Shown here in pieces: positions 8 to 19,600 of a stretch of 64,000 nt of DNA. Source of the DNA: Leptonemataceae bacterium (GTDB lineage: Bacteria > Spirochaetota > Leptospiria > Leptospirales > Leptonemataceae); the NCBI GenBank assembly GCA_965227295.1, contig OZ245742.1:1888001-1952000 (forward strand). The letters run 5' to 3'. Under the pieces are notes generated by a model. It searched no databases. It was not told the DNA's origin and saw only the letters and a list, made by a program, of their open reading frames with translations. A program made the position numbers and the translations under genes. Every line of letters starts with the position of its first letter. Positions within the stretch are counted from its first letter, which is position 1.

Positions 8-676
8 GTGCCACCGACAATCCAGGTAATGATTGTAGATGATCACCAACTGCTCCGCGAAGGGCTGTCCCGGATCATTGAAAAAGAACCGGGCCTCAGC
101 GTGAGCGGCGAGGCGGCGGACGAATGCGCGGCTTTGCGGATCCTTTCGCGCGATGTGCCGGACGTTCTCGTTCTGGATCTGTCTTTGCACGAAGACAGCC
201 TGAGTTTTGAATTTCTGCATGCCGTGCGGTCGCGTTATCCGCGCATGCAGGTCTTAGTCTACTCGGCGCACGATGAGTTTGTTTACGGCGAGCGTTGTCT
301 GCGCGCCGGCGCCATGGGGTTCGTTTCCAAGCAGGCCGGCCCCCGGCAGCTTCTGGAAGCGATTCGGGCGGCCGCCGCGGGCGAACGTTTCGTCAGCCCC
401 GCGCTGTCCGACAGGCTCATGAAACGTTTCTTTGACGGCGATTCTCTGAATCCCATCGACCGGCTCAGCGATCGAGAACTGGAAGTCTTCTACCTCATGG
501 GCCGCGGCCTGCCCGCGAAAGAAATCGCCGATCGTCTCGGAATTACCCGAAACACGGTGGAGTCGCACTTTCAACATGTGCGCGGAAAGCTGGGGCATGC
601 GGACAATACGCAGCTCATTCGTGAGGCGCGGAAGTGGTTCATCGAACAGGCGGGCGTCGGCGAAAACAACGCTTAG
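8..676 (+). CDS. NarL/FixJ-family response regulator (REC + LuxR HTH)
   Basis: IVDDH...VLDLSL receiver domain; LSDRELEVF...IADRLGITRNTVESH LuxR HTH. Confidence 0.92.
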   Translation: MPPTIQVMIVDDHQLLREGLSRIIEKEPGLSVSGEAADECAALRILSRDVPDVLVLDLSLHEDSLSFEFLHAVRSRYPRMQVLVYSAHDEFVYGERCLRAGAMGFVSKQAGPRQLLEAIRAAAAGERFVSPALSDRLMKRFFDGDSLNPIDRLSDRELEVFYLMGRGLPAKEIADRLGITRNTVESHFQHVRGKLGHADNTQLIREARKWFIEQAGVGENNA

Positions 677-679
677 ATC

Positions 680-1381
680 TTACGCATCGTCTTCCGGCGG
701 CGGCGCGTCCCGGCTTCCGCGTTCGGCCAGAATCCACTGCACCGCCACCTTGTTGATGTCGGCGGAACTCTTGAGACCCAGTTTTTCGCGAATGCGAGCG
801 CGGTGTGTTTCCACGGTACTGCGGCTTACGCCCAGTTTCTCCCCGATCTCCGCCGTGCTGAAGCCCCAGCCCGTGAGTTCGAAAATCTCCAGCTCGCGAT
901 CACTGAGCGCGTCCACGATGGAACCGCGGTCTTCACTGCCCGGCTGCACAAAGTAGCTGCGCATAATGCGCTTCGCAAGATCTTCACTGAGATACAACTC
1001 TCCGATCAACACTTTGCGCAGCGCCTCCAGCACGACCGAGGAGTGTACGCTTTTGGTGACGTAACCTCGCGCGCCGGCTTTGATGCAGCGTTCGGCGTAG
1101 AAGGATTCGTTGTGCATGGAATGCACCAGCAGGTAGATCTTCGGATAGCGATTGTGCACGGTGCGTAAGAGTTCCAGTCCGGACGCGGCCCCTTCGAGGG
1201 TAATGTCCACGATGGCCGCGTCGGGGGGGTGTTCGCACTCGGCCAGAAGCTTGAGGGCATCCCGGGAGTTACCCGCCTCGCAGCAGACGACCAGGTCTTC
1301 TTCGCGATCAATGATCTCCCGCAATCCTTCGCGGAGAATCGGATGATCATCCACAAGCATGATGCGCTTGCGATCGCTCAA
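680..1381 (-). CDS. NarL/FixJ-family response regulator (REC + LuxR HTH)
   Basis: LVDDHPILREG receiver; LSDRELEIF...STVETHRARIREKLG. Start placed at the TTG overlapping the upstream kinase stop (TTGA). Confidence 0.9.
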   Translation of the reverse strand: MSDRKRIMLVDDHPILREGLREIIDREEDLVVCCEAGNSRDALKLLAECEHPPDAAIVDITLEGAASGLELLRTVHNRYPKIYLLVHSMHNESFYAERCIKAGARGYVTKSVHSSVVLEALRKVLIGELYLSEDLAKRIMRSYFVQPGSEDRGSIVDALSDRELEIFELTGWGFSTAEIGEKLGVSRSTVETHRARIREKLGLKSSADINKVAVQWILAERGSRDAPPPEDDA

Positions 1382-2871
1382 ACTTCCGTTCCTCCGGAAT
1401 TCGCCTGCATCGGAACCGTGCAGACGACACACAAATCATGGGCCTGCTTTCGGAAGGAGAGCTGCGCCCCGATCATTTCCGCCCGGTACAGCATCAATTC
1501 GTGCTGGTGAGATTGTGATGGTTCCGTGTCCGTGCGTGCCTGAAAGGCGCAGATCTCCAGTTCCAGATGATCACCGGCCTGTTTGATGCGGGCGTTAATG
1601 CGTTCGGTGCGTGCCGCGACACAGTAGTCGACGGCGTCGGCGGCGATGTAGTACAGATGCAGGGCGCTCTCCGCGGACAGCGGCAGATCTCCGGGACACT
1701 GAACGCGACACGGCGTTCCGTAGAAGCGTTCATAACGCGACGCCAGGTCCGCCAGGTTGTCCGGCAGGCTGGCGGCATCCAGTTGCAGGGGATAGAGACT
1801 CAACGCATTTTCCCGGGTTTCGTCGATGGCCCGGCGGAGCGTCTCGCTGATCTTCGTCGCGAGCGAGCACGCGGAGTCCTGCCCGGATTCCGCCAGTCGT
1901 TGTTCCAGGGACTCGGCGAGATAGGCGATGCCCGATAGCAACTGTCCGAGATTGTCGTGCAGGTTTCGGCCGATGCGACGGCGTTCGCCTTCACTCACGC
2001 TCAGGAGTTTGCGTCCCAGTTCCCGCTGTCCGCGCAGGTTCTCGGCGTGATCGTGAATTTCGGTGATGTCCTGCGTGACTCCGGCGATAAGCCTGGGAGA
2101 GCCGTTCCCGTCCCGGGCGAAGACACGGTCCTGCGAGAGCATGTGCCGCCATCGGCCGTCGGCGTCGCGCAGCCGCACCCGGGATTCCATTGTTTCGTTG
2201 TCGCTGACGTTTGCGTAGCGTGCGGCGCGTTCCGGTTGCCGCGCAAGATCGTCCGCATGCATGATCTCGGAGTTGATGGCGCCGCCGAAGTCCTCCACTT
2301 CCTCGCGGCTCATGTCGGCGAACTGAAGCGCCGCGGGGTTCGAGTAGATTGAGTACTCCTGTTTCAGGTCGTAGACGTAGACCGGCAACGGTACTGTATT
2401 TAAGACGCGCTGATAAAACGAAGGCGTTCCTGGAGTCGTTTCCTCGATCGGTTGCAGGCGGGCGAAGAAATCCCGGATATGCGCACTATGTTTTTCAGTT
2501 ACGCAGAACAGCGGGCCACTGCGTAACGCTTCGGACGCAATGTCCATGAGTTTCGCGCGCGATTTCTCGTCGGCCTCGGTCATTTCGGCCAGAGGTTCGC
2601 CGGTAATGCTGATGATGATGGTCCCGGCCGCACCGCGGGTGTGTATGTGCCGTACCAAATCCACTGCCCCGTCCCAGGAATGGTGGATAATGACGGCGGC
2701 GGGTGAGAACGATTCTAAAGCCGTAACGGCTCCGTCGTACGTAGAGACCGTTTGCACCGGCCAATCCCTGAGAAGCGTCCTTAAAGAGAGCGCGAAGTCC
2801 TCGTCTGCGGCGATGAGCGTGTTCACTGGCAGGGCGGAGTTTCTCCTGAGGAGACTGGGTTCGCAAGTCAT
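1378..2871 (-). CDS. PAS-domain sensor, HisKA_3 (NarX/UhpB-like) kinase with degenerate ATPase domain
   Basis: PAS/PAC (HADDLAR...RLRDADGRWR...DITE); H-box ERRRIGRNLHDNLGQLL; N/G boxes not recognisable. Confidence 0.82.
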   Translation of the reverse strand: MTCEPSLLRRNSALPVNTLIAADEDFALSLRTLLRDWPVQTVSTYDGAVTALESFSPAAVIIHHSWDGAVDLVRHIHTRGAAGTIIISITGEPLAEMTEADEKSRAKLMDIASEALRSGPLFCVTEKHSAHIRDFFARLQPIEETTPGTPSFYQRVLNTVPLPVYVYDLKQEYSIYSNPAALQFADMSREEVEDFGGAINSEIMHADDLARQPERAARYANVSDNETMESRVRLRDADGRWRHMLSQDRVFARDGNGSPRLIAGVTQDITEIHDHAENLRGQRELGRKLLSVSEGERRRIGRNLHDNLGQLLSGIAYLAESLEQRLAESGQDSACSLATKISETLRRAIDETRENALSLYPLQLDAASLPDNLADLASRYERFYGTPCRVQCPGDLPLSAESALHLYYIAADAVDYCVAARTERINARIKQAGDHLELEICAFQARTDTEPSQSHQHELMLYRAEMIGAQLSFRKQAHDLCVVCTVPMQANSGGTEV

Positions 2872-3054
2872 TTGTACGAGTTTCTACGTAAATAATACTC
2901 ACTCAATTTCATGACCCTGTGGCGAAAAACGCTACAGGGCGTACCGGACAGTCGACTACCTCAGAAGTACGGCTTCCCCCGATTGTTCTAACCCTCGCTC
3001 TGATGTAGGCTCAGTCCACGTTAGGCCGCGGGACGGCCGCACCGGAGGAAGAAC

Positions 3055-4809
3055 ATGAAACTCGCATTGAGGGGTAAACTTATTCTGGGATTCAGTTTAG
3101 CAATGATCGGTATCGGTATCGTCGCCTGGCGCGGCATCGTCGGCATGTACGGCCTGAACGCGGAGCTGAATTCCATTGAAGAAAAACAATTTCGCCCCGC
3201 GGCTTTGATCGCGGACGCAAACGTCGCCTTGCTCGCGTGGAACCGCGCGATCCTGAAGCACATCATCGTCACGAATCGCAATTCCATGAAGGAGCTGGAA
3301 AAAGAAAGCGGCGAGAATAAAACGATCCTGCACGAAAAAATGGAGGAGCTGGCCGGCCTGTCGGGATTGAGCGACGAGGGCCGCGGTCTTATAAAAGAAA
3401 TTCGCACGAGCATCGAGCGGGCCGACGGAACCGAAGCGAAGGTCGTCTCTCTCAGCCGCTCCGAACAACAGGACGAGGCCCGCGTGCTCATGAATAGCGA
3501 CCTGCGACCGGTTTTCAACGAACTGGATGCAAATATGACGACCTTTCTGCAACTGCAACGCAAGCAGTTGGAGACCGTCATGACCGCCACCGATGCGCGC
3601 TTCAACGAGTCCATGCGCAACATCATCATCCTCACCATTGCGACGTTCGTAATCGTCGTCGCGGCCGCGTTTTTCATTATTCTGTCGATCACCCGGCCGA
3701 TCCACAACTCCATCAACTCGCTGTCCGAAAGCGCGGGACAGGTGGCCGGAGGGTCCCAGCAGGTAAGTATTGCCAGCCAGAAGTTAGCAGAGAGTACGTC
3801 GCAACAGGCTTCCGCCCTGGAAGAGAGTTCCGCTTCCATCGAAGAGCTGTCCGCCATGACTCAGAACAACTCCGAGATGTCCGACGAGGGCAATCGTCTG
3901 GCCGAGGAGTGCGCCCAGATTGCGGGGCGGGCCAACGAATCCATGACGTCGCTCAAGCGCGCCATCCAGGTCATTAATTCTTCCTCGGAGAAGACCGGGA
4001 AGATCGTAAAGGACATCGACGAGATCGCTTTTCAGACGAACATCCTTTCGTTGAACGCCGCCGTGGAAGCCGCCCGGGCCGGACAGGCCGGCAAGGGTTT
4101 TGCCGTAGTTGCGGAAGAAGTGCGCAACCTCGCTCTGCGCGCGGCCGAAGCGGCGAAAAACACAACGGACCTTATTGAGGGTTCGCGTAAGTCCATCAAC
4201 GAAGGTTTTACGCTGACCCAGGCGACAGAGAAAGACTTCGGCGAATTGAGCGAGTCCGTTGCGCGTCTGAAGAAACTCGTTTCGGAGATCAACACCGCGT
4301 CCGGTGAACAGGCCCGCGGCATCGAAGAGATCAACCGCGCGGTGGAAAGTATGAACGACGGTACGCAGTACAACGTTACGGCTTCCGAAGAAAGCGCGGC
4401 CGCGGCGGAAGAGCTGAGTGCTCAGGCGCGCGCCCTGATGGATGTCGTAGATGATCTTTCAGCCATTGTCGGTCGCATTGATCGTCGTCGCGGCGATACG
4501 CGGCAAGACCTCAAACAAGCCCAGGTGCACGAAGCCCATAAGGCCGTGCAAGAACATGCTAACGGTAACGGTAACGGAGCCGGCAACGGCAAGGTCGTAT
4601 ACACGAACGGTCGCGCGACGCAGGACTCGAACGGAAAGGCCGTGCATGCGAACGGGAACGGCACGCACTCCGGGAACGACAGTCACGCTTCCGCGGAAGA
4701 CGGCGCGCATTCCGGTAACGGCCGGGAGCCGGTGGCCGCGGGAAAGAACGTCCGCCCGGAAGACGTCATCTCTCTCGAGGACGATGACGAACACTTCGAT
4801 CGCTTCTGA
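3055..4809 (+). CDS. methyl-accepting chemotaxis protein (4HB-type sensor)
   Basis: Two TM segments; signalling tip IAFQTNILSLNAAVEAARAGQAGKGFAVVAEEVRNLA; C-terminal pentapeptide HFDRF. Confidence 0.95.
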   Translation: MKLALRGKLILGFSLAMIGIGIVAWRGIVGMYGLNAELNSIEEKQFRPAALIADANVALLAWNRAILKHIIVTNRNSMKELEKESGENKTILHEKMEELAGLSGLSDEGRGLIKEIRTSIERADGTEAKVVSLSRSEQQDEARVLMNSDLRPVFNELDANMTTFLQLQRKQLETVMTATDARFNESMRNIIILTIATFVIVVAAAFFIILSITRPIHNSINSLSESAGQVAGGSQQVSIASQKLAESTSQQASALEESSASIEELSAMTQNNSEMSDEGNRLAEECAQIAGRANESMTSLKRAIQVINSSSEKTGKIVKDIDEIAFQTNILSLNAAVEAARAGQAGKGFAVVAEEVRNLALRAAEAAKNTTDLIEGSRKSINEGFTLTQATEKDFGELSESVARLKKLVSEINTASGEQARGIEEINRAVESMNDGTQYNVTASEESAAAAEELSAQARALMDVVDDLSAIVGRIDRRRGDTRQDLKQAQVHEAHKAVQEHANGNGNGAGNGKVVYTNGRATQDSNGKAVHANGNGTHSGNDSHASAEDGAHSGNGREPVAAGKNVRPEDVISLEDDDEHFDRF

Positions 4810-4834
4810 TTGAAATCATTCTAACGGGAGGAAG

Positions 4835-5386
4835 ATGTCTATGTCCGCACAAGAAACAGCCGGTGCCGTTCGCGGCGCCGGATTCGAAGAATACTCGGAG
4901 AACGCCGAGGAGATCGCCGCCGATGTGTACCTGACCTTCTCGGTCGCGGAGAACGAATACGCCGTCGCGGTGGCGGGGGTTCGCGAGATCCTCGGCCTGC
5001 CGGAGCGCACCGAGGTTCCGGATATGCCGACCTACGTGAAGGGCGTCATTAATCTACGCGGCCGGGTGGTGCCGCTGATCGACATGGGCCTGCGCCTCGG
5101 TCACCAGAGCGAGAGCGAATACGGGGAACGTACCTGCGTGATCATCATCGAGGTGGGCCGGCTTCTGGCCGGATTGATCGTCGATTCGGTGAACGAGGTC
5201 ATGCGTATTCCGGAAGAAGACCTGGAACCGGCGCCGCGGTTTTCCGCGGAGGGCGGCCGCAGCCATCGTTTCATTCGTAGCATCGGCAAGACCGAAGACG
5301 GGGTGAAACTCGTCGTTGACCTCGGCGGCCTGCTGGATGAACAGGGGCGTCGGGTGTTGGAGCAGACGGAGACGATTTCCTCGTAA
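4835..5386 (+). CDS. cheW: chemotaxis coupling protein CheW
   Basis: YLTF...VPDMPTYVKGVINLRGRVVPLID...GLIVDSVNEV. Confidence 0.93.
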   Translation: MSMSAQETAGAVRGAGFEEYSENAEEIAADVYLTFSVAENEYAVAVAGVREILGLPERTEVPDMPTYVKGVINLRGRVVPLIDMGLRLGHQSESEYGERTCVIIIEVGRLLAGLIVDSVNEVMRIPEEDLEPAPRFSAEGGRSHRFIRSIGKTEDGVKLVVDLGGLLDEQGRRVLEQTETISS

Positions 5387-5419
5387 GTTTTCATCGAGGG
5401 AAGTTAGTGGAGAAAGACG

Positions 5420-7240
5420 ATGGATGATCTGCTGCACGGATTTCTTTCGGACGCCCGGGAGATTGTGGACTCCACGGAGGCGATCGTCGTGCGCTTCGAC
5501 GCGGACGGTGGTTGTCTCGACGCCGATCCTTTGCATCGTCTCTTTCGTGGTTACCATACGCTCAAGGGCACCGCGGGCTTCTTCGAGTTGCAACACCTGG
5601 TTTCCGTAACTCACGCCGCGGAAGACTTACTGGATCTGTTGCGGGAACAGCCGGCTCTGTTGAATCGCGACGACCTGCGCCGTCGCACGGTGGAACTGAT
5701 GCTGTCGGTGGGTGACTTTCTGCGTCGTTTGATCGACCACATCGCGGAGCACGGCAACGACGCGGACTTTGCCGCCGAAGCGAAAACCTTCACGGAGCCC
5801 CTGCGCGATCTCGTGCACGACGCAAGGCGACCCGCCGACGCCGACCCGCAGTCTTCGGGTGCGGAGAAAGCCGCTGTGATCGAAGCGAAGCCGGCGACGG
5901 AAGCGATGCCGGAGGAAGCGGAACACGGTGCATCGTTCGGACTGTTCGATGAAACGGCGCCGACCGCAGAAGGGCCGGCGGCCGACGCGGCGATATCGTC
6001 GACCGAGGCCCGCAAGTCCGACCGAAGCCACAAGGACATTCGCATCAGCGTTGATCGCATCGATCGTCTGGTGGATTCCACCGGAGAGTTGACCATCATC
6101 GAATCCATGATTCGGCGCTCGGTGCAATCCATGAACGGCACCGCCGACCACGAACTGCGCAACGCCGCCGGCCAACTGCGGTCTCTCGTGCGCAATCTTC
6201 AGGAAATTGCGTTGGGTATGCGCATGATTCCCCTGGTCGGCGTCTTTCGCAAAGTGGAACGCCTGGTCTCCGATCTGCGCCGACGTTCGGGTAAGAACGT
6301 CGTGCTCGAAACTTACGGCAGCGACACCGAACTGGATAAGTCCGTAAGTGAAGCCGTCGCCGATCCGTTGATGCACATCCTGCGCAACGCCGTGGATCAC
6401 GGCATTGAATCGCCGCAAGAGCGTGCCGACGCGGGGAAAGCGGGCGAGGGGCGCATCGTTCTCGAAGCGCGGCACGCCGGCAGCGAGGTGTGGATCAGTG
6501 TACAGGACGACGGCCGCGGCCTGGATCGCGAAAAGATTCTCGAACGCGCCAGGGAGCGCGGGCTTATCGACGTCGCGATGCGGACGGCTGAACTGAGCGA
6601 CGAAGAGGTCTGGGACTTCATTTTCGAACCCGGTTTCTCCACCGCGGAAAGCATCACACACATGTCCGGTCGCGGCGTGGGCATGGACGTCGTTCGCAAA
6701 AACGTTCACGCGCTGCGCGGGCGCGTCGAGGTACGCGCGGAACCGGGCGGCGGCACGCGCTTTCTGTTACGCATTCCCTTAACACTTTCGATCATCGACG
6801 GCATGATCATGGAGATCGACGGCAGTTTCTTTGTATTGCCCACCATCGATATTCATCGTTCCCTCGCCGTAAGCGAAAAGACGGAACGGGAAGCCCTGCC
6901 CGGCGGCGACGTCCTGCATGTGGACGGACGCCTGGTGCGTACGCTGGCATTGCGTTCGGCGTTTCGTTTCGGTGTTGCGACTCGTGAAGATCGGGACCAT
7001 CCCCTCGCCGTAATCATTGAACAGGAAGGCCGCTATCTCGCGTTGTATGTCGATCGCATCATCGGCAACCAGAGCGTCGTGATCAAGCCGCTGCCGGAGT
7101 ACATGCGGGGCGTACGCGGTCTCGCCGGTTGTACGATCCTCGGCGACGGCGAGGTGGCGTTCATCTTCGACGTACAGGATCTGCTGCGGCGCTTCGCCGC
7201 GACCGCCGCGGACCGGCGTCACCTGGGGGCCGCGACATGA
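5420..7240 (+). CDS. cheA: chemotaxis histidine kinase CheA
   Basis: Hpt LFRGYHTLKG; HILRNAVDHGIE; DDGRG; IFEPGFSTA; SGRGVGMDVV; C-terminal CheW-like domain. Confidence 0.95.
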   Translation: MDDLLHGFLSDAREIVDSTEAIVVRFDADGGCLDADPLHRLFRGYHTLKGTAGFFELQHLVSVTHAAEDLLDLLREQPALLNRDDLRRRTVELMLSVGDFLRRLIDHIAEHGNDADFAAEAKTFTEPLRDLVHDARRPADADPQSSGAEKAAVIEAKPATEAMPEEAEHGASFGLFDETAPTAEGPAADAAISSTEARKSDRSHKDIRISVDRIDRLVDSTGELTIIESMIRRSVQSMNGTADHELRNAAGQLRSLVRNLQEIALGMRMIPLVGVFRKVERLVSDLRRRSGKNVVLETYGSDTELDKSVSEAVADPLMHILRNAVDHGIESPQERADAGKAGEGRIVLEARHAGSEVWISVQDDGRGLDREKILERARERGLIDVAMRTAELSDEEVWDFIFEPGFSTAESITHMSGRGVGMDVVRKNVHALRGRVEVRAEPGGGTRFLLRIPLTLSIIDGMIMEIDGSFFVLPTIDIHRSLAVSEKTEREALPGGDVLHVDGRLVRTLALRSAFRFGVATREDRDHPLAVIIEQEGRYLALYVDRIIGNQSVVIKPLPEYMRGVRGLAGCTILGDGEVAFIFDVQDLLRRFAATAADRRHLGAAT

Positions 7241-8082
7241 TGAGCGGCAACCCGGAAGTTCGTCCGATGACGGCGACGGAGTTCGAGTACATTTCGAATA
7301 TGCTCCGGCAGAGCCTCGGCATTCGCATGCGCGAAGAGAAACGCACGACGTTGCATCATCGTCTCTCGCGCCTGGTGCGGGAGGCCGGGTTCAACAATTA
7401 CGGCGATTACTTCGAGTATGTCGCGGACGACAGCGGCGGCGGGGCCATGAGCGAAATGATCGCCCGCATCACCACGAATCACACGTATTTTTTTCGCGAG
7501 GACGATCACTTTGAATTTCTGCGCGCGGAGATCTTTCCCCGGTGGAAGGACCGCGAGTCGATTCGTATCTGGAGTGCGGCCTGCGCCACGGGCGATGAGC
7601 CGTATACCATCGCCATCGAACTTATTGAGTATTTCGGTCCCGGGCTTCTCGGCCGGGACTGTGCGATCCTCGCCACGGATATTTCCCGGCGTGCCGTGGA
7701 TGCGGCGCGCCGGGGCGTTTTTTCCGCGGAGCGCGTGTCGGCTTTGCCGGCGAACCTGCGCCGCCGGTACTTTCGTAAGACGGGGCGGGATCAATTCAAA
7801 ATTCTGGAAGACCCGCGCAAACTGGTAACGTTCGGCGTACTGAACTTAAGGCGCCGCGACTTTCCGTTTCGGGGTCTCTTTGACGTCATCTTTCTACGCA
7901 ATGTAATGATCTATTTCGATCCGGCCACGGCCGCGGAAACCGTACGTTCGCTGAGCCGCTACCTGCGGCCGGGGGGATACCTCGTCATCGGCAAAAGCGA
8001 GACCCTGGACCGTTCGGTGAAGGAATTTCAAAGCATCCGGCATTCGATCTACCGTTATTCCGGCAGGCAGGGCCAGGCATGA
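7237..8082 (+). CDS. cheR: chemotaxis methyltransferase CheR
   Basis: TTNHTYFFRE; IRIWSAACATGDEPYT; FDVIFLRNVMIYF; ATG overlaps the cheA stop (ATGA). Confidence 0.94.
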   Translation: MMSGNPEVRPMTATEFEYISNMLRQSLGIRMREEKRTTLHHRLSRLVREAGFNNYGDYFEYVADDSGGGAMSEMIARITTNHTYFFREDDHFEFLRAEIFPRWKDRESIRIWSAACATGDEPYTIAIELIEYFGPGLLGRDCAILATDISRRAVDAARRGVFSAERVSALPANLRRRYFRKTGRDQFKILEDPRKLVTFGVLNLRRRDFPFRGLFDVIFLRNVMIYFDPATAAETVRSLSRYLRPGGYLVIGKSETLDRSVKEFQSIRHSIYRYSGRQGQA

Positions 8083-9161
8083 TTCAAGAGACAGCCGTGA
8101 AAACTCGCGTCCTGATCGTGGACGACAACGCCGTGATCCGCCGTATCTTGAGGGACGGACTGTCCCGGGAGCCCGATCTGGAAGTGGTGGGGGAGGCCCC
8201 GGATCCCTTCGTGGCGCGGGATCTAATCGTTAAGTTGCGACCGGATGTTCTTACGCTGGACGTGGAGATGCCGCGCATGAACGGCGTGGAATTCTTACGT
8301 AAACTCATGCCGCAATACCCGTTGCCCGTGGTGATGGTCAGTTCTCTGACGCGCCGGGGACGTTCCATTACTCTCGAAGCACTGGAGCTCGGCGCCATCG
8401 ACTACGTGGAGAAGCCCGACGGCATGCACGGCTCCGCCGATGATATGATGGAAGCGCTCATTGCCAGGGTGAGGGTCGCCGCGCAAACAGACATACAACA
8501 AATGTTAACGCGGCGTGGGAGCGGCGGCCCGCGTACGAAACGCGACGTCTCCCGGACGCCGACAGCCCCGGCCGGCCTCTTACAGGTCGTGGGCATCGGC
8601 GCCTCCACCGGCGGTACGACGGCCTTGCACGAACTCCTGGGCGAGTTGCCCCCGGAGTCGCCGGGCATCGTGATCGTGCAACATATGCCGGCGGGGTTCA
8701 CGAAACTATTCGCGGAACGCTTGAACGAAGTCTGCGGTCTCGATGTGAAAGAAGCCGAGACCGGTGATCTCATTCTCCCCGGCCGGGTACTGGTGGCGCC
8801 CGGCAACCGGCATTTGTCCGTGCGTCGTCGCGGGAACGCGTTCTGTACGCACGTCTTCGATTACGATCGAGTGGGCGGACATCGGCCGTCCGTAGACGTG
8901 CTCTTTTCTTCGCTCGCGGAGAACGTTCCCGGAGATCGCTGCGCCGGCGTGCTGTTGACGGGCATGGGCTCGGACGGGGCGCGCGGTTTGAAGGACATGC
9001 GCGGGGCCGGGGCGCGCACCATCGCTCAGGACGAAGCGAGCAGCGTGGTCTACGGCATGCCCAGGGCCGCCGTCGAACTGGGCGCGGCGGAGTTCGAACT
9101 TCCCCTGGAACGGATTGCGGGCCGGCTGCGCGCGTTAATGTATGAGGAGGCAAAGTTATGA
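8079..9161 (+). CDS. cheB: chemotaxis methylesterase CheB (REC + methylesterase)
   Basis: GIGASTGG; IVQHMP; HRPSVDVLF; LTGMGSDG; VVYGMP. Confidence 0.95.
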   Translation: MIQETAVKTRVLIVDDNAVIRRILRDGLSREPDLEVVGEAPDPFVARDLIVKLRPDVLTLDVEMPRMNGVEFLRKLMPQYPLPVVMVSSLTRRGRSITLEALELGAIDYVEKPDGMHGSADDMMEALIARVRVAAQTDIQQMLTRRGSGGPRTKRDVSRTPTAPAGLLQVVGIGASTGGTTALHELLGELPPESPGIVIVQHMPAGFTKLFAERLNEVCGLDVKEAETGDLILPGRVLVAPGNRHLSVRRRGNAFCTHVFDYDRVGGHRPSVDVLFSSLAENVPGDRCAGVLLTGMGSDGARGLKDMRGAGARTIAQDEASSVVYGMPRAAVELGAAEFELPLERIAGRLRALMYEEAKL

Positions 9162-16795: not shown

Positions 16796-17185
16796 ATGTA
16801 TGATATTCTGACGGCACTTCCGGCCGCCGGATCGACGTTCTACGTGCAGTGCGTGCGAGGCAATGCGGACTACGCGACGTACTGGTCTTCCACGACCCAC
16901 GTCGCCTGCGACAGCTCCACGTCGGATTGCTCCGGAGGGGATGATCCATCGGCCGGTGCGTACATGGCCTTCGGTCGTGCTCTGGGTTTCAACAGCGGTA
17001 CGATTACCGACGTGCACGGCGCGGGTGCCCAGCGCAGCGACGACAAGGACGATGTGAGTACGAAAAGCGGCGCCCAGAGCGGGAATGTCGGTTTCGGATC
17101 TTTTTATTATCATGGTCCGCAGGGCGACATCCTGCGTGACGGCAACGGCGAGGACGGCCAGTACGTGAGGTGCGTGCGCAACTGA
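16796..17185 (+). pseudogene. truncated DUF1566 (Lcl C-terminal-like) protein fragment
   Basis: FYVQCVRGNADY, YWSSTTH, AFGRALG...DVHGAGAQRSD, HGPQGD, YVRCVR motifs; N-terminal part absent. Confidence 0.6.
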
Positions 17186-17207
17186 TTGCTGAGTAAGATG
17201 ATTTCTG

Positions 17208-17353
17208 TCGACCGGGTTGGATTCGAACCAACATAAGTGCTTGTAAAAACTATTCGATTGGATCGCCCGTTTATAGAACGATCCGAGTGAGTAACTTTGT
17301 TTCTGCTTTGACAGTTGACGAAACTGTTGCCTTTACCATTTGGCTACCGGTCG
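17208..17353 (-). ncRNA. non-canonical tRNA-like RNA with 78-nt variable region
   Basis: 7-bp acceptor CGACCGG/CCGGTCG; U8A9; D arm GCC-AAATGGTAAA-GGC; stem ACAGT-TTCGTCA-ACTGT; T arm GTTGG-TTCGAAT-CCAAC. Confidence 0.7.
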
Positions 17354-17398
17354 GTATTTTACTTATGACTCCATAGTGTTCTGCACGCCCCTGAACGA

Positions 17399-17432
17399 AG
17401 AAAGGCGAGCCTTTGGTCGGGCTCGCCTTTCT
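17399..17432. terminator. terminator-like hairpin (possibly bidirectional)
   Basis: 13-bp perfect stem AGAAAGGCGAGCC/GGCTCGCCTTTCT with 8-nt loop. Confidence 0.65.
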
Positions 17433-17781
17433 GTTTCAGTAAATATGTCACTGAACTAAGGCAAGCGCACGCCTCCGGCCGGCGCAAGGTATTCGACGCC
17501 GGTCGCGCTCTCGTTGTGGTTGCGTGTCTTATGCATGATCATTCCTGATTGCTTACCGGAAATTGGACGATAAGGATCGCAGAAATCTTCATAAAAAATG
17601 GCGCGTTTCTTGCTGGCCCGGGCTGCACGGCCCGCGGTAGTCCGGCGGAAGTCAATAGCAGCGAAAATTTGGGCTATCATCGCAACAATTTTTAGGCCGT
17701 ATCAAAGATCGATAATTGGTTAGAGCTTGCGGGCAAAAGACTTGCCCCCGGCGGGCAGGCGTGCTGAATCTGTCCCCCGAT

Positions 17782-18769
17782 ATGAGCACAATTCGCCGCC
17801 CGATCATCCTGTGCGCTGTCGCCGCGCTTGCGGTGACGGAGCCTTTCAGGAATACGCTCTGTTCGGTGGCCTCGCCAGCTTCGGGCTACGTACGATTACG
17901 AAGCTCTTCAACAAGGTGTGGTCGTGGGTCCGCCAGGTTGTTTACAAATCACTCGTATGGATGGCGGCGCGTCTCGGTGCTTCCCTGTCGGCGCGGCTTG
18001 AGTTTGTGAAGTGGCGGCAGCCCCGGCCGGAGGTTCCTTTACGCCGTGCGGTCTGGGCGTTCATATCGATCCAGTCTCGACGGCGGCCGTAGACTCGATG
18101 TTTGGACCGTGGGCCGTCGATGGCGATATTTACATGAGCCCCAGCGAGCAGCAGTGGAAGCAATCCAACGTCATCTTACATGAGTACGGGCACTTTTTGC
18201 ACTGCATGGTCCTCGGTGACAGCCGATCGATTGAAAATATCACGGCTTACTGGAACGAGATTCGTCGTGATCCGCAGGGCTTCATAGGCAAACTAATCGC
18301 TCAGTTTCATGAGGGTATCGCGGAGTATTTCGCTTTCTCGCTGTCGGGCCGCTTTGGATACACCGGGGCAGAACTGCTGAACATCGAAGAAAACTGGTCC
18401 CCGTACTTCTTTCGCGCGACATCCAATTCGACCCTGCTGCTCCCAGGAAACTATTTACTGGATGTTCTTTACCAAAGTGATTCGACGATCGCATCCATCA
18501 CATCGATCTTGCACGACTTACATGATTCGGAAGCCGATTCACATCCCGCCGTTTCTTATGCCGGAGTAACCGACGTCGTTAGTTCGGGATTTATGGGCGG
18601 CAACATCAATCCACTGATCGCCAGTCTTCCGGCACGGCCGACGATCGATGATCTTTATCAAACAGCGCAGGCGCTCTACGCACCGCGCTTTGATGTCGGC
18701 TGGAATCATGTTTATTTTCGCAAGTCCGGCTCGTTTTCGTACGACATTTCAAGATGGGTAATCGAATGA
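17782..18769 (+). pseudogene. frameshifted secreted zinc metallopeptidase (gluzincin-like)
   Basis: HEYGH followed by downstream HEGIAEYF in ORF 18011-18769; a signal-peptide-like start (MSTIRRPIILCAVAALAV) lies upstream, out of frame with it. Confidence 0.5.
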
Positions 18770-18936
18770 ACTATGCAAGGCATCTACTCTTGAGTGCCGC
18801 TCTGTTCGCGGCTCTGACACTCGGTTGCTATAGAACCGGCGGCGATTGCGATACGGAATGCCAGCAGGAGCGAGCAATCCCCCTGCTTATTTTGCTGTTG
18901 CTGGATCAATCGACGCAACAACAGAATCAGAACTAA
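18766..18936 (+). CDS. small putative lipoprotein
   Basis: ATGA-coupled to the peptidase stop; MNYARHLLLSAALFAALTLGC lipobox. Confidence 0.5.
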   Translation: MNYARHLLLSAALFAALTLGCYRTGGDCDTECQQERAIPLLILLLLDQSTQQQNQN

Positions 18937-19210
18937 GGTTTGCAAAGAATCGTTCTCTATCGCGCCACCGGATTCATCGTATTTGTTCTTTCTGCAAGCG
19001 CAGCCTGGTTGGCTATTCTCAAGTGCTGGAAACGCCCGGTAGCGGTGATCGCGCTCTATCCGGCATTGAACGTCATTGCCCTGATCGTGCTGTCGCTCGC
19101 TGCCATGCTGGAATGCTGAGAGTGCTCAATCAGACAGCGCTACAACTGAGTAAATCTCCTGAGAGTGCAAGACCTCGCATCCGCTTTTGCAATTTCTTAA
19201 TATATTTTAA

Positions 19211-19600
19211 ATAACTCCGGATCATCAGAAAGGCAAGAGCGGTCGCGGCCAGTACGTGTATTACAAACACCGCTGCACCAACGCGGAACGCCCTCGCTAC
19301 TTCTCGGCGCCCCGCCTGATCGAAGCAATCGACGCGGCCGTGGCCAGGCTTCAATTTACCGAAGCCTACGCGGAACGTCTCGGCCGCCTCTTCGAGGGGG
19401 CGATGACTCAGCAAGCATCGAATTTCAAATCGGATCAGAAGTATATCCGGTTGAAGTGCGAAAGATAGCCGTATTCGTTCCTGGCGGACGAAGGAATCTA
19501 TCTGGCACCCCGCAAATGAAAAGCAGTAGAGACCGCATTGCGCGGACTCCTGAAGTACTCCCGCCTTTCAGTTGAGGGTGTTCGATTTCGTTTATTTCTG
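19211..19600 (+). pseudogene. probable large serine recombinase remnant
   Basis: KGKSGRGQYVYYKHRC zinc-ribbon-like segment followed by a helical region, pointing toward the tRNA 3' end. Confidence 0.4.

Follow-up and report, generated by a model that had tools for sequence, protein, structure and literature searches.

A tRNA-shaped RNA with a conserved variable-region module is a candidate Y-RNA-like partner of a putative Ro60-like protein

We analysed a 64,000-nt stretch (the window) of contig OZ245742.1 from a Leptonemataceae bacterium, whose 5.94-Mb genome we call G000, and found that a 146-nt tRNA-shaped RNA gene on its minus strand (positions 17208–17353) belongs to a structurally selected family of RNAs, linked on phage contigs to, and co-occurring in two bacterial genomes with, genes for a putative Ro60-like protein. 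We think it probable, with moderate confidence, that the window RNA is a Y-RNA-like partner of this protein that has true tRNA connectivity rather than the permutation of YrlA RNAs. The argument combines selection on the structure, a non-decoding loop, linkage traced both from the RNA and from the protein, co-occurrence in genomes, a module shared with RNA units beside the protein gene, the predicted fold of the protein and the precedent of Ro60 and YrlA.

The RNA has the canonical arm order (acceptor stem, D arm, anticodon arm, insert, T arm, acceptor stem) with free acceptor ends, and 78 nt lie between its anticodon and T arms. Its parts, numbered from the 5' end of the RNA and compared where noted with a homologue in G008, a genome of the same family and a different genus, are as follows.

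17347–17353, minus strand: 5' strand of the acceptor stem (nt 1–7), CGACCGG, forming 7 bp with CCGGUCG at nt 139–145
17329–17344, minus strand: D arm (nt 10–25) with A14 and G18G19, read from the sequence
17311–17327, minus strand: anticodon-like arm (nt 27–43), with a 5-bp stem ACAGU/ACUGU and the loop UUCGUCA, C at position 37
17299–17310, minus strand: linker A of the insert (nt 44–55), CAAAGCAGAAAC, A/C-rich and unpaired in the folds of nearly all members
17289–17298, minus strand: 5' strand of the outer helix of the insert, P1 (nt 56–65), from the minimum-energy fold
17285–17288, minus strand: internal-loop strand ACUC (nt 66–69), its CUC invariant in 17 of 17 aligned members
17260–17284, minus strand: insert hairpin P2 (nt 70–94), 9 bp, GGAUCGUUC/GGGCGAUCC, from folds and covariation
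17256–17259, minus strand: internal-loop strand AAUC (nt 95–98), opening AAUCGAA, conserved between the window and G008
17246–17255, minus strand: 3' strand of P1 (nt 99–108), from the fold and covariation
17233–17245, minus strand: linker B of the insert (nt 109–121), UACAAGCACUUAU, running into the T arm, with ACA.G invariant or nearly so in 17 members
17216–17232, minus strand: T arm (nt 122–138), GUUGG-UUCGAAU-CCAAC, from the sequence and Rfam
17208–17215, minus strand: 3' strand of the acceptor stem and discriminator A (nt 139–146), with CCA unencoded and CAG as the next bases

A first-pass annotation of the window had described the tRNA arms, the 78-nt insert, the 9-bp hairpin and the missing CCA on this strand, and all are present as it stated. 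The Rfam tRNA model (RF00005) spanned the RNA from end to end (47.0 bits against a gathering score of 29, E = 6.7e-7, model positions 1–71), placed the extra bases in the variable region and was the sole Rfam family matched at gathering score; relatives scored 36–54 bits against it. ARAGORN made no call on the window RNA or on its long relatives. The minimum-energy fold was a cloverleaf plus hairpin (−39.4 kcal/mol, z = −3.41), and none of 200 shuffled sequences was equally stable. U8–A9 is present, and the family core includes the tertiary-contact bases U8, A14, G18G19 and the T loop, with a possible A15–U48 pair besides.

The long form is a single copy in G000. Its G008 homologue (140 nt) is 72% identical to the window RNA, and all 32 predicted pairs are intact in the comparison, 11 of them with both partners changed. 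The acceptor stems of the two copies are wholly different and still paired, their insert blocks are conserved, and their flanks share no similarity by blastn or tblastx. With a covariance model built from this pair (R1), we searched 42 genomes of the family and samples of 151 genomes each from the order and the phylum; strong matches came solely from G000 (172.8 bits) and G008 (162.7 bits). The remaining matches scored 46 bits or less and mostly had ordinary tRNA lengths, the exceptions being one of 149 nt in G047, a genome of a sister family, and those of 103–113 nt in G063, G012 and G035 (29.5–37.6 bits), of which the G012 and G035 matches overlap permuted tRNA-like loci (L007 and L005, described below). 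In G047, two tandem AT-rich tRNA-like units with inserts of ~80–90 nt lie on the plus strand (L033:1299–1454 and 1501–1649); one resembles the window RNA in its D arm and linker blocks, but its acceptor stem is broken and it folds weakly (G047 z scores, −0.4 and −1.0). These units are probably decayed relatives of the window RNA, and the Ro-like protein was not found in the G047 genome.

A search for the D-arm pattern with a T loop 85–115 nt downstream gave 45 metagenome and 10 viral loci, some of them simply two adjacent tRNAs. R1 found in these loci many tRNA-shaped matches of ~115–190 nt that ARAGORN left uncalled, the family as a whole covering 115–200 nt; the long RNAs often stand in tandem (two to five copies with differing loops) within or at the edge of large tRNA arrays, and some lie on viral contigs of 190–370 kb. 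At E ≤ 1e-7, R1 returned 26 matches of 129–155 nt from 19 sources (the 26-member set); a 17-member set was aligned independently with MAFFT, and a broader model built from that alignment (R2) scored the window RNA at 99.2 bits. Simpler searches returned little: blastn of the window RNA gave no match in collections of phages (50,697 records) and plasmids (72,556 records), blastn of three tandem phage-type copies gave none in the phage collection, and a pattern specific to the insert found the G008 contig alone among genome contigs, nothing in viral contigs and, when tied to the D arm, nothing in metagenomes.

The insert has the same layout in 23 of the 26 members, as read by eye: an A/C-rich linker of ~10 nt, an outer helix, an internal loop of ~4 × 4 nt, a hairpin and a linker with ACAAGC. 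The internal loop carries ACUC on its 5' side and AAUC or a variant on its 3' side, the return strand of the outer helix is followed by the conserved ..ACAAGC.. linker and then by the T arm, and a CA-rich consensus of linker A is visible in the family alignments. The D arm (GUAGCC.AA.GGUAAAGGC) is near-invariant, a feature for which the search pattern had selected. Among the 17 aligned members, 94.3% of cells in the predicted pairs were standard-paired (shuffles, 66.9 ± 1.4%), and the covariation score was 0.742, compared with 0.206 in shuffles (0 of 500 reached the observed value) and at most 0.215 with the pairing partners slid. All 7 acceptor pairs were compensatory, with 100% of cells paired; all 5 pairs of the anticodon stem covaried; P1 (columns 59–63/106–110) showed compensatory change at each of its 5 pairs, with 90.6% of cells paired; and the T arm had 3 of 5 compensatory pairs and 100% of cells paired. 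P2 and all tRNA helices also covary across the 26 members. The structure of this RNA family is under selection, and covariation, homologues and the conserved insert bear out the earlier proposal of a tRNA-mimic noncoding RNA under structural selection; the Infernal and Rfam searches with covariance models that the proposal had named were decisive.

The same data bear on whether the window RNA might be a dead or dying pseudo-tRNA, that is, an array tRNA with a chance variable-loop insertion, drifting in what remains of a mobile element. Against this, the window RNA at 72% identity to G008 has every pair intact and 11 compensated, the loop strands and linkers of the insert are conserved across distant phage members, and the two bacterial copies have unrelated flanks, so that the RNA alone has been kept. 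On the other side stand a pair of tRNA-Lys(UUU) genes in G000 that differ mainly by an insertion of ~46 nt, the C37 and unencoded CCA of the window copy, its solitary place in a low-GC patch amid open reading frames (ORFs) of no known family, and the decayed look-alikes in G047. We consider the pseudo-tRNA very unlikely. A tRNA gene from whose transcript a small intron or mobile insertion is excised to leave a normal tRNA is extremely improbable: the short repeat AAGCA does flank the insert in the window and G008 copies, and the placement in a loop region is intron-like, but the repeat belongs to the conserved linkers and not to a target duplication, a group I intron would need far more than 78 nt, the insert matches no family of introns or ribozymes, removal would still leave a non-canonical anticodon loop, and the insert is the most conserved, covarying feature of the RNA.

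The anticodon-like loop is unconserved over the 26 members: as read by eye, about half lack U33, several have A34 and two have 8 nt, and while the window loop has C37, the G008 loop has G33. CCA follows the discriminator in 11 of 31 members (CCT in 5 more) and in 20 of 76 in a second, independent set, where chance would give 1 in 64. The discriminator itself varies among A, G and U, the acceptor stems differ completely between family copies, and G1–C72 is present in 16 of 17 members. Because the loop is unconserved while the helices covary and CCA is enriched, the window RNA keeps a tRNA core and tRNA-type ends without a decoding loop.

Several identities were rejected. A decoding tRNA is contradicted by the lack of a conserved U33 and purine-37 in the loop, by an insert of 78 nt that exceeds normal variable-region size and by the absence of an ARAGORN call. 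A tmRNA was dismissed because ARAGORN reported none, tRNA is the best member of its Rfam clan, the anticodon arm is complete and the RNA has 146 nt; a group I intron or ribozyme was dismissed because no such family reached gathering score in the window or a permissive E value in the member loci. The first-pass annotation had excluded both a tmRNA and a self-splicing intron, in agreement with these results. That the ACAAGC linker might pair instead with the anticodon stem was also rejected, since by eye the two do not covary.

SerRS and LeuRS ignore the anticodon, and some class II tRNAs and allo-tRNAs are charged regardless of it. The full tRNA core with its usual tertiary-contact bases, a CCA encoded far above chance, the nearly constant G1–C72 and the frequent position of members beside Leu and Ser tRNAs would all suit a chargeable tRNA with a giant variable arm, used in recoding or in non-ribosomal aminoacyl transfer. 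We nevertheless give this a slim chance at best: discriminators and acceptor stems vary with no single identity set evident, the loops violate the U33 and purine-37 rules, the unpaired linkers of ~10 nt are unlike class II arms, and the linkage to the Ro-like gene would go unexplained. Close to the long RNAs at L047, L051, L055, L089 and L091, ARAGORN calls odd tRNAs of normal length, among them a 'tRNA-Ser' of 73 nt, tRNAs whose anticodons have A34 (Asp-atc, Cys-aca, Ser-act) and two whose 'anticodons' have two bases; possibly these too are tRNA mimics that do not decode.

To look for a protein partner, we grouped stop-to-stop ORFs, 487 in all, from the window region and 18 member loci into clusters. 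One protein family appeared in 8 loci, every time just downstream of the RNAs and on the same strand, which amounts to 8 of the 10 RNA-anchored loci whose downstream sequence extends for 1.8 kb or more. The first-pass annotation had advised inspecting homologue neighbourhoods for TROVE-like genes, and this inspection was decisive in finding the gene of this ~630-aa Ro60-like VWA protein. Because the RNA sample was biased by the D-arm pattern, we restarted from the protein side, with a scan of viral contigs that gave 69 Ro-like loci to which R2 was applied at E ≤ 1e-5. All 86 matches at these loci lay on the strand of the protein gene, 76 of them at least 115 nt long, and 36 of the 69 loci had at least one long RNA within 4 kb of the gene (21 upstream, 17 downstream, 2 both). 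Of the 42 family genomes, G000 and G008 alone contain the RNA, and these two alone contain the protein; two relatives of G000 in the same genus lack both. The protein was detected in 2 of 151 genomes of the order sample and 1 of 151 of the phylum sample, mirroring the RNA results, and beyond G000 and G008 neither was found. RNA and protein genes are thus linked on the same strand on phage contigs and co-occur in bacteria; the co-occurrence is supportive and not statistical proof, related genomes not being independent.

An accessory RNA of tRNA arrays that acts independently of the Ro-like protein, for example by diverting host nucleases that target tRNAs, or enzymes that modify them, as a decoy or sponge, would use the variable anticodon-like loop as bait and the extra arm as a stabiliser or as a handle for another factor. 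This would leave unexplained the same-strand linkage (86 of 86 matches; 36 of 69 loci), the co-occurrence in 2 of 42 genomes and the module shared with units by the protein gene, and the roughly half of loops without U33 would be poor mimics of an anticodon loop. Such a decoy nonetheless draws support from the siting of members within or alongside big tRNA arrays of phage-like contigs, where tandems of two to five copies with differing loops are frequent; from two phage records, one of them 100% complete, that have long-insert RNAs and neither the Ro-like protein nor TROVE; from excerpts of PMC12803027, in which tRNA arrays are putative anti-defence units; and from the Wadjet-type and E1-type genes adjoining the Ro-like cluster of G000. 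On balance we regard it as unlikely.

Evidence for a Y-RNA-like partner comes also from the surroundings of the bacterial protein gene. The Ro-like gene of G000 (286,421–288,232) has an intact frame of 626 aa (E = 1e-154), and the G008 protein is 60.6% identical to it; G000 has no TROVE gene by Pfam, and no remnant of a Ro-like gene was found near the window RNA (best tblastn E, 8.2). Directly downstream of the G000 gene lie two tandem units of ~130 nt (fold z scores, −2.4 and −3.0), each with a terminal helix joining both ends, the loop strands AAUC and ACUC, and a second helix. The linkers ..UUACAAGCAU.. and ..CCAAACGAAA.. of these units enclose a tRNA-like domain, a CA-rich linker is present, and in the first unit the domain is a complete tRNA shape that ARAGORN calls tRNA-Arg. 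G008 has one Y-like unit ~350 nt downstream of its Ro-like gene. The ACUC strand of the window RNA recurs in the units of both genomes, as does the linker ..ACAAGCAU of its linker B, and the signature CAATCG-N6–14-ACAAGCA occurs exactly three times in the 5.94 Mb of G000, in the two units and the window RNA (reversed control, once). Judged from these sequences, the G000 units have a predicted Y RNA layout built from the same module as the insert of the window RNA. The canonical arm order had led the first-pass annotation to set the RNA apart from Y RNAs, and the evidence points the opposite way: the module is common to the Y-RNA-like units by the Ro60-like gene of G000, and relatives of the RNA adjoin genes of the same protein family.

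The G000 cluster (L099, G000:C1:280000–296000, positions 91–8218, minus strand) contains the Ro-like gene, the two Y-like RNAs, ORF2, a JAB gene, a 113-aa ORF and an E1 gene. ORF2 is conserved with phage loci (E = 2e-9) and received no name from Pfam, NCBIfam or PHROGs and no usable match from ESM Atlas. The Prok-JAB ORF (E = 5e-5) is just under the cut-off, the E1 is ThiF-type (PADLOC 'E1-E2'), and a Wadjet JetD gene and an SbcC/JetC-like ATPase gene adjoin the cluster.

The Ro-like protein, of ~630 aa, ends in a VWA domain (Pfam VWA_2, E about 1e-5) whose MIDAS (metal-ion-dependent adhesion site) residues, D-x-S-x-S, T and D, are invariant in the family; the family comprises at least 2,073 proteins at E ≤ 0.001. 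Its first ~430 residues matched nothing in Pfam, NCBIfam or PHROGs. An AlphaFold2 model (predicted local distance difference test score, pLDDT, 75) has an extra N-terminal beta-rich segment, and the best full-length Foldseek matches of the whole model were Ro60/TROVE structures over 530–580 aligned columns (9kop, E = 2.7e-7), including Deinococcus Rsr (2nvo), Thermus phage Ro60 (9l5y), Xenopus Ro60 (1yvr) and the human protein (9nen). In an alignment of the N-terminal domain alone (pLDDT 72) to 48,161 PDB chains, made without Foldseek, ranks 1–3 went to Rsr (Z 8.5), phage Ro60 (Z 7.4) and Xenopus Ro60 (Z 6.5). TROVE clusters were among the more distant neighbours in a language-model search (scores of 0.90–0.92), and a VIA re-alignment of the whole model was dominated by the VWA domains. 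The modelled structure suggests, with moderate confidence, that the protein is Ro60-like, with helical repeats and a MIDAS-bearing VWA domain. One member of the family, P0097 (1043 aa), carries intein and homing-endonuclease domains (Pfam PF14528 and PF14890, precomputed).

Several results weigh against a Ro-type partnership. The G000 protein gene is 1.6 Mb from the window RNA, and in G008 the two are on different contigs. At 33 of the 69 viral protein loci there is no long RNA match within 4 kb at E ≤ 1e-5, and both the Ro-like protein and TROVE are missing from four viral records, three of them 90% complete or more, that the RNA pattern had retrieved; of these, two hold clear long-insert RNAs (L089, and L095, a twin of L054), whose inserts deviate from the family consensus. 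On the protein side, Pfam TROVE (PF05731) matched none of 7 family members and 10 distant relatives, a PDB sequence profile reached a phage TROVE protein at E = 0.61 only, the whole-model matches to Ro60 have low TM-scores (0.35–0.46), and Foldseek on the N-terminal domain alone gave nothing significant; a single chain reaches Z 8 in the alignment of that domain, and Z 8.5 is modest for a helical repeat. Rfam at E ≤ 5, applied to the window RNA and the Ro-like loci of G000 and G008, returned tRNA, two chance-level rows and no Y-RNA family, the presence of a YrlA model in the library being unconfirmed. Finally, an unrelated tRNA-Lys insertion in G000, described below, indicates that variable-loop insertions can arise without the module.

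Taken with the linkage and the shared module, the Y-RNA-like reading has a precedent in known Ro60 complexes. In the excerpts available of PMC4201824, PMC12135203 and PMC7824862, bacterial and phage Ro60 binds tRNA-like Y RNAs encoded nearby; excerpts of the first describe cutting by RNase P and the attachment of CCA for M. smegmatis YrlA, and those of the first two describe contacts of Ro60 with a helix that has a bulge or internal loop and a CGAA-type motif, which the AAUCGAA of the window RNA resembles. By analogy, the insert arm (outer helix, ACUC/AAUC loop, hairpin, and CA-rich and ACAAGC linkers) would be the docking site for the Ro60-like ring. RNase P, RNase Z and the CCA-adding enzyme would mature the RNA through its tRNA body, which would protect it from nucleases and might dock a tRNA-binding partner, and the RNA would serve as a stable noncoding subunit of a Ro-type ribonucleoprotein. 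In this reading we infer the binding of the protein to the window RNA, and the processing, expression and cellular role of that RNA.

A more far-reaching version, which we consider quite unlikely, is that jumbo phages and some bacteria share a widespread, previously undescribed Ro-type machine for which the RNAs act as programmable adaptors. The constant arm would dock the Ro60-like ring, whose G000 gene is clustered with genes for ubiquitin-like conjugation (JAB and E1-type); maturation in the manner of a tRNA would come from the tRNA body; and the hypervariable anticodon-like loop of each tandem copy would select a target, for example one anticodon nuclease or, by loop–loop pairing, a host or phage tRNA. 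In that case an RNA-guided system for tRNA surveillance or counter-defence would be carried by tRNA arrays.

The window RNA lies at the edge of a low-GC patch (0.52–0.54 compared with ~0.60; about 17000–19600), which ends 2.4 kb away at a genuine tRNA-Ser(GGA). Two features flank the RNA.

17201–17207, minus strand: 7-nt trailer CAGAAAT directly 3' of the RNA, identical to the trailer of the tRNA-Ser at 19594–19600
17399–17432, minus strand: perfect inverted repeat of 13 bp with TTTCTT after it, lying 46 nt upstream of the RNA and unflagged by a consensus scan

The repeated trailer could be the remnant of an att core, and the patch that it brackets may be what is left of an element integrated at tRNA-Ser. 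A test for an empty site found no clean one, the same-genus genomes being too diverged (83% identity even at tRNA-Ser) and non-syntenic. The mobile-island origin proposed in the first-pass annotation is therefore plausible from the low-GC patch by tRNA-Ser, the sporadic distribution and the relatives on phage contigs, the insertion event itself finding no support in an empty site; its statement that the flanking genes are decayed went unconfirmed, as the ORFs of the patch merely match no Pfam or PADLOC family. The 13-bp hairpin is likely, from its sequence, to be the terminator of the upstream ORF, in which case the window RNA would be its own transcription unit; a scan for consensus promoters found none directly upstream of it. 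Copies of this hairpin, 87% identical, are present in both blocks of a G000 tRNA array (L173, G000:C1:4545000–4561000; 41 tRNA genes in ~12 kb, arranged as two inverted blocks), and the setting fits an origin of the window RNA from a mobile tRNA-array element.

The same array holds a tRNA-Lys(UUU) paralogue (L173:13303–13420, plus strand) with a variable-loop insertion of ~46 nt that has its own hairpin and lacks the AAUCG..ACAAGC module; outside the insertion it is identical to a normal 73-nt copy (L173:3505–3577, minus strand) save for two bases at the T-stem junction. Directly after a tRNA-Asn, a very stable 116-nt structured element (L173:12162–12277, plus strand; z = −7.1) starts like a tRNA and ends in a long perfect hairpin. 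In G001, of the same genus, a small ORF by tRNA-Ser, homologous to window positions 19214–19462, occurs twice (L031, G001:C2:3978000–3990000, ~3046–3708 and 7751–8588), the second copy being in inverted orientation, with a 30-nt piece from the 3' end of tRNA-Ser beside it.

Chains of permuted tRNA-like modules were seen at L005 ~1420–1620, L006 ~1420–1620 and L007 ~1400–1620 (minus strand; G035, G026 and G012, respectively), in the order T arm, tetraloop-closed acceptor helix, D arm and anticodon-like arm (GUU or UUA), followed by ~300 nt of GC-rich structured sequence. Rfam gave a partial tRNA alone for these loci, and their three genomes have no Ro-like protein. No TROVE was found in G035, G026, G012, G008 or G047, and on account of its absence from the first three we rejected the loci as classical YrlA beside Ro60.

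Y RNAs and Ro60 are conserved from bacteria to humans. The family described here offers a natural 'un-permuted' form with real tRNA ends, often with an encoded CCA, ties it to a large protein family that goes unrecognised as Ro60 by sequence models, and places both in phage tRNA arrays, which are suspected counter-defence units. G000 is a tractable bacterial case, with one RNA unlinked from the protein gene and two others beside it. If the protein does bind these RNAs, the range of Ro-type ribonucleoproteins would be wider, the uses of the tRNA module (processing, charging, recruitment) would be directly testable, and a class of genes missed by tRNA finders, and otherwise annotated as odd tRNAs or pseudogenes, would be brought to notice.

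Our literature search, which did not extend to the supplementary Y RNA candidate tables of PMC4201824, found no description of a Y RNA with canonical tRNA topology or of this Ro-like protein family. Apparently new are a module set in the variable region of an RNA with canonical tRNA topology, the divergent family of proteins, and the occurrence of both RNA and protein in phage tRNA arrays.

YrlA, as described in the main-text excerpts of Chen et al. 2014 (PMC4201824), is the closest comparison. Like the window RNA, it is a tRNA mimic with conserved D and T arms and a possible 15–48 Levitt pair, and one of its helices has an internal loop, with a CGAA-like motif on the strand toward the T arm; like the phage relatives of the window RNA, it is encoded on the same strand as, and close to, a Ro-type gene, and phages carry both kinds. 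The topology differs. In YrlA the ends form the Ro-binding stem, the order is T arm, closed acceptor-like stem-loop and D arm, and the Ro stem replaces the anticodon stem (same excerpts), whereas the window RNA has true acceptor ends, keeps an anticodon-like arm and presents the putative Ro-binding helix as a closed hairpin arm in the variable region. Its candidate partner also falls outside Pfam TROVE, with a gene 1.6 Mb off rather than within ~4 kb. The YrlA motif given in the same source, GNCGAA(N0–1)G, is near to the AAUCGAAUAG of the window RNA without matching it exactly, and relatives have AAUCGG, AACCGG or ACUCGC.

The Ro60 of Thermus phage phiLo, with its Yrl1 and Yrl2 RNAs (excerpts of PMC12135203), resembles the present case in combining a phage-borne Ro60-type protein with nearby Y-like RNAs; the phiLo Yrl RNAs lie just upstream and have a stem–bulge–stem with a CGAA motif, and the phiLo structures 9KOP and 9L5Y are among the best structural matches of the Ro-like protein. 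As those excerpts describe it, phiLo Ro60 differs in being a recognisable TROVE protein of ~500 aa, compared with ~630 aa here, and its Yrl RNAs are Y RNAs with a 5'–3' stem and not tRNA-ended. Class II tRNAs (Leu, Ser, Tyr and Sec) and the allo-tRNAs of Mukai et al. (PMC5389517, in excerpt) share with the family an extra helical arm between the anticodon and T arms. The class II variable arm, however, has ~10–25 nt and starts right after the anticodon stem, whereas the arm of the family has 60–90 nt, two helices and a conserved internal loop, is joined by unpaired linkers of ~10 nt and accompanies a non-canonical anticodon loop.

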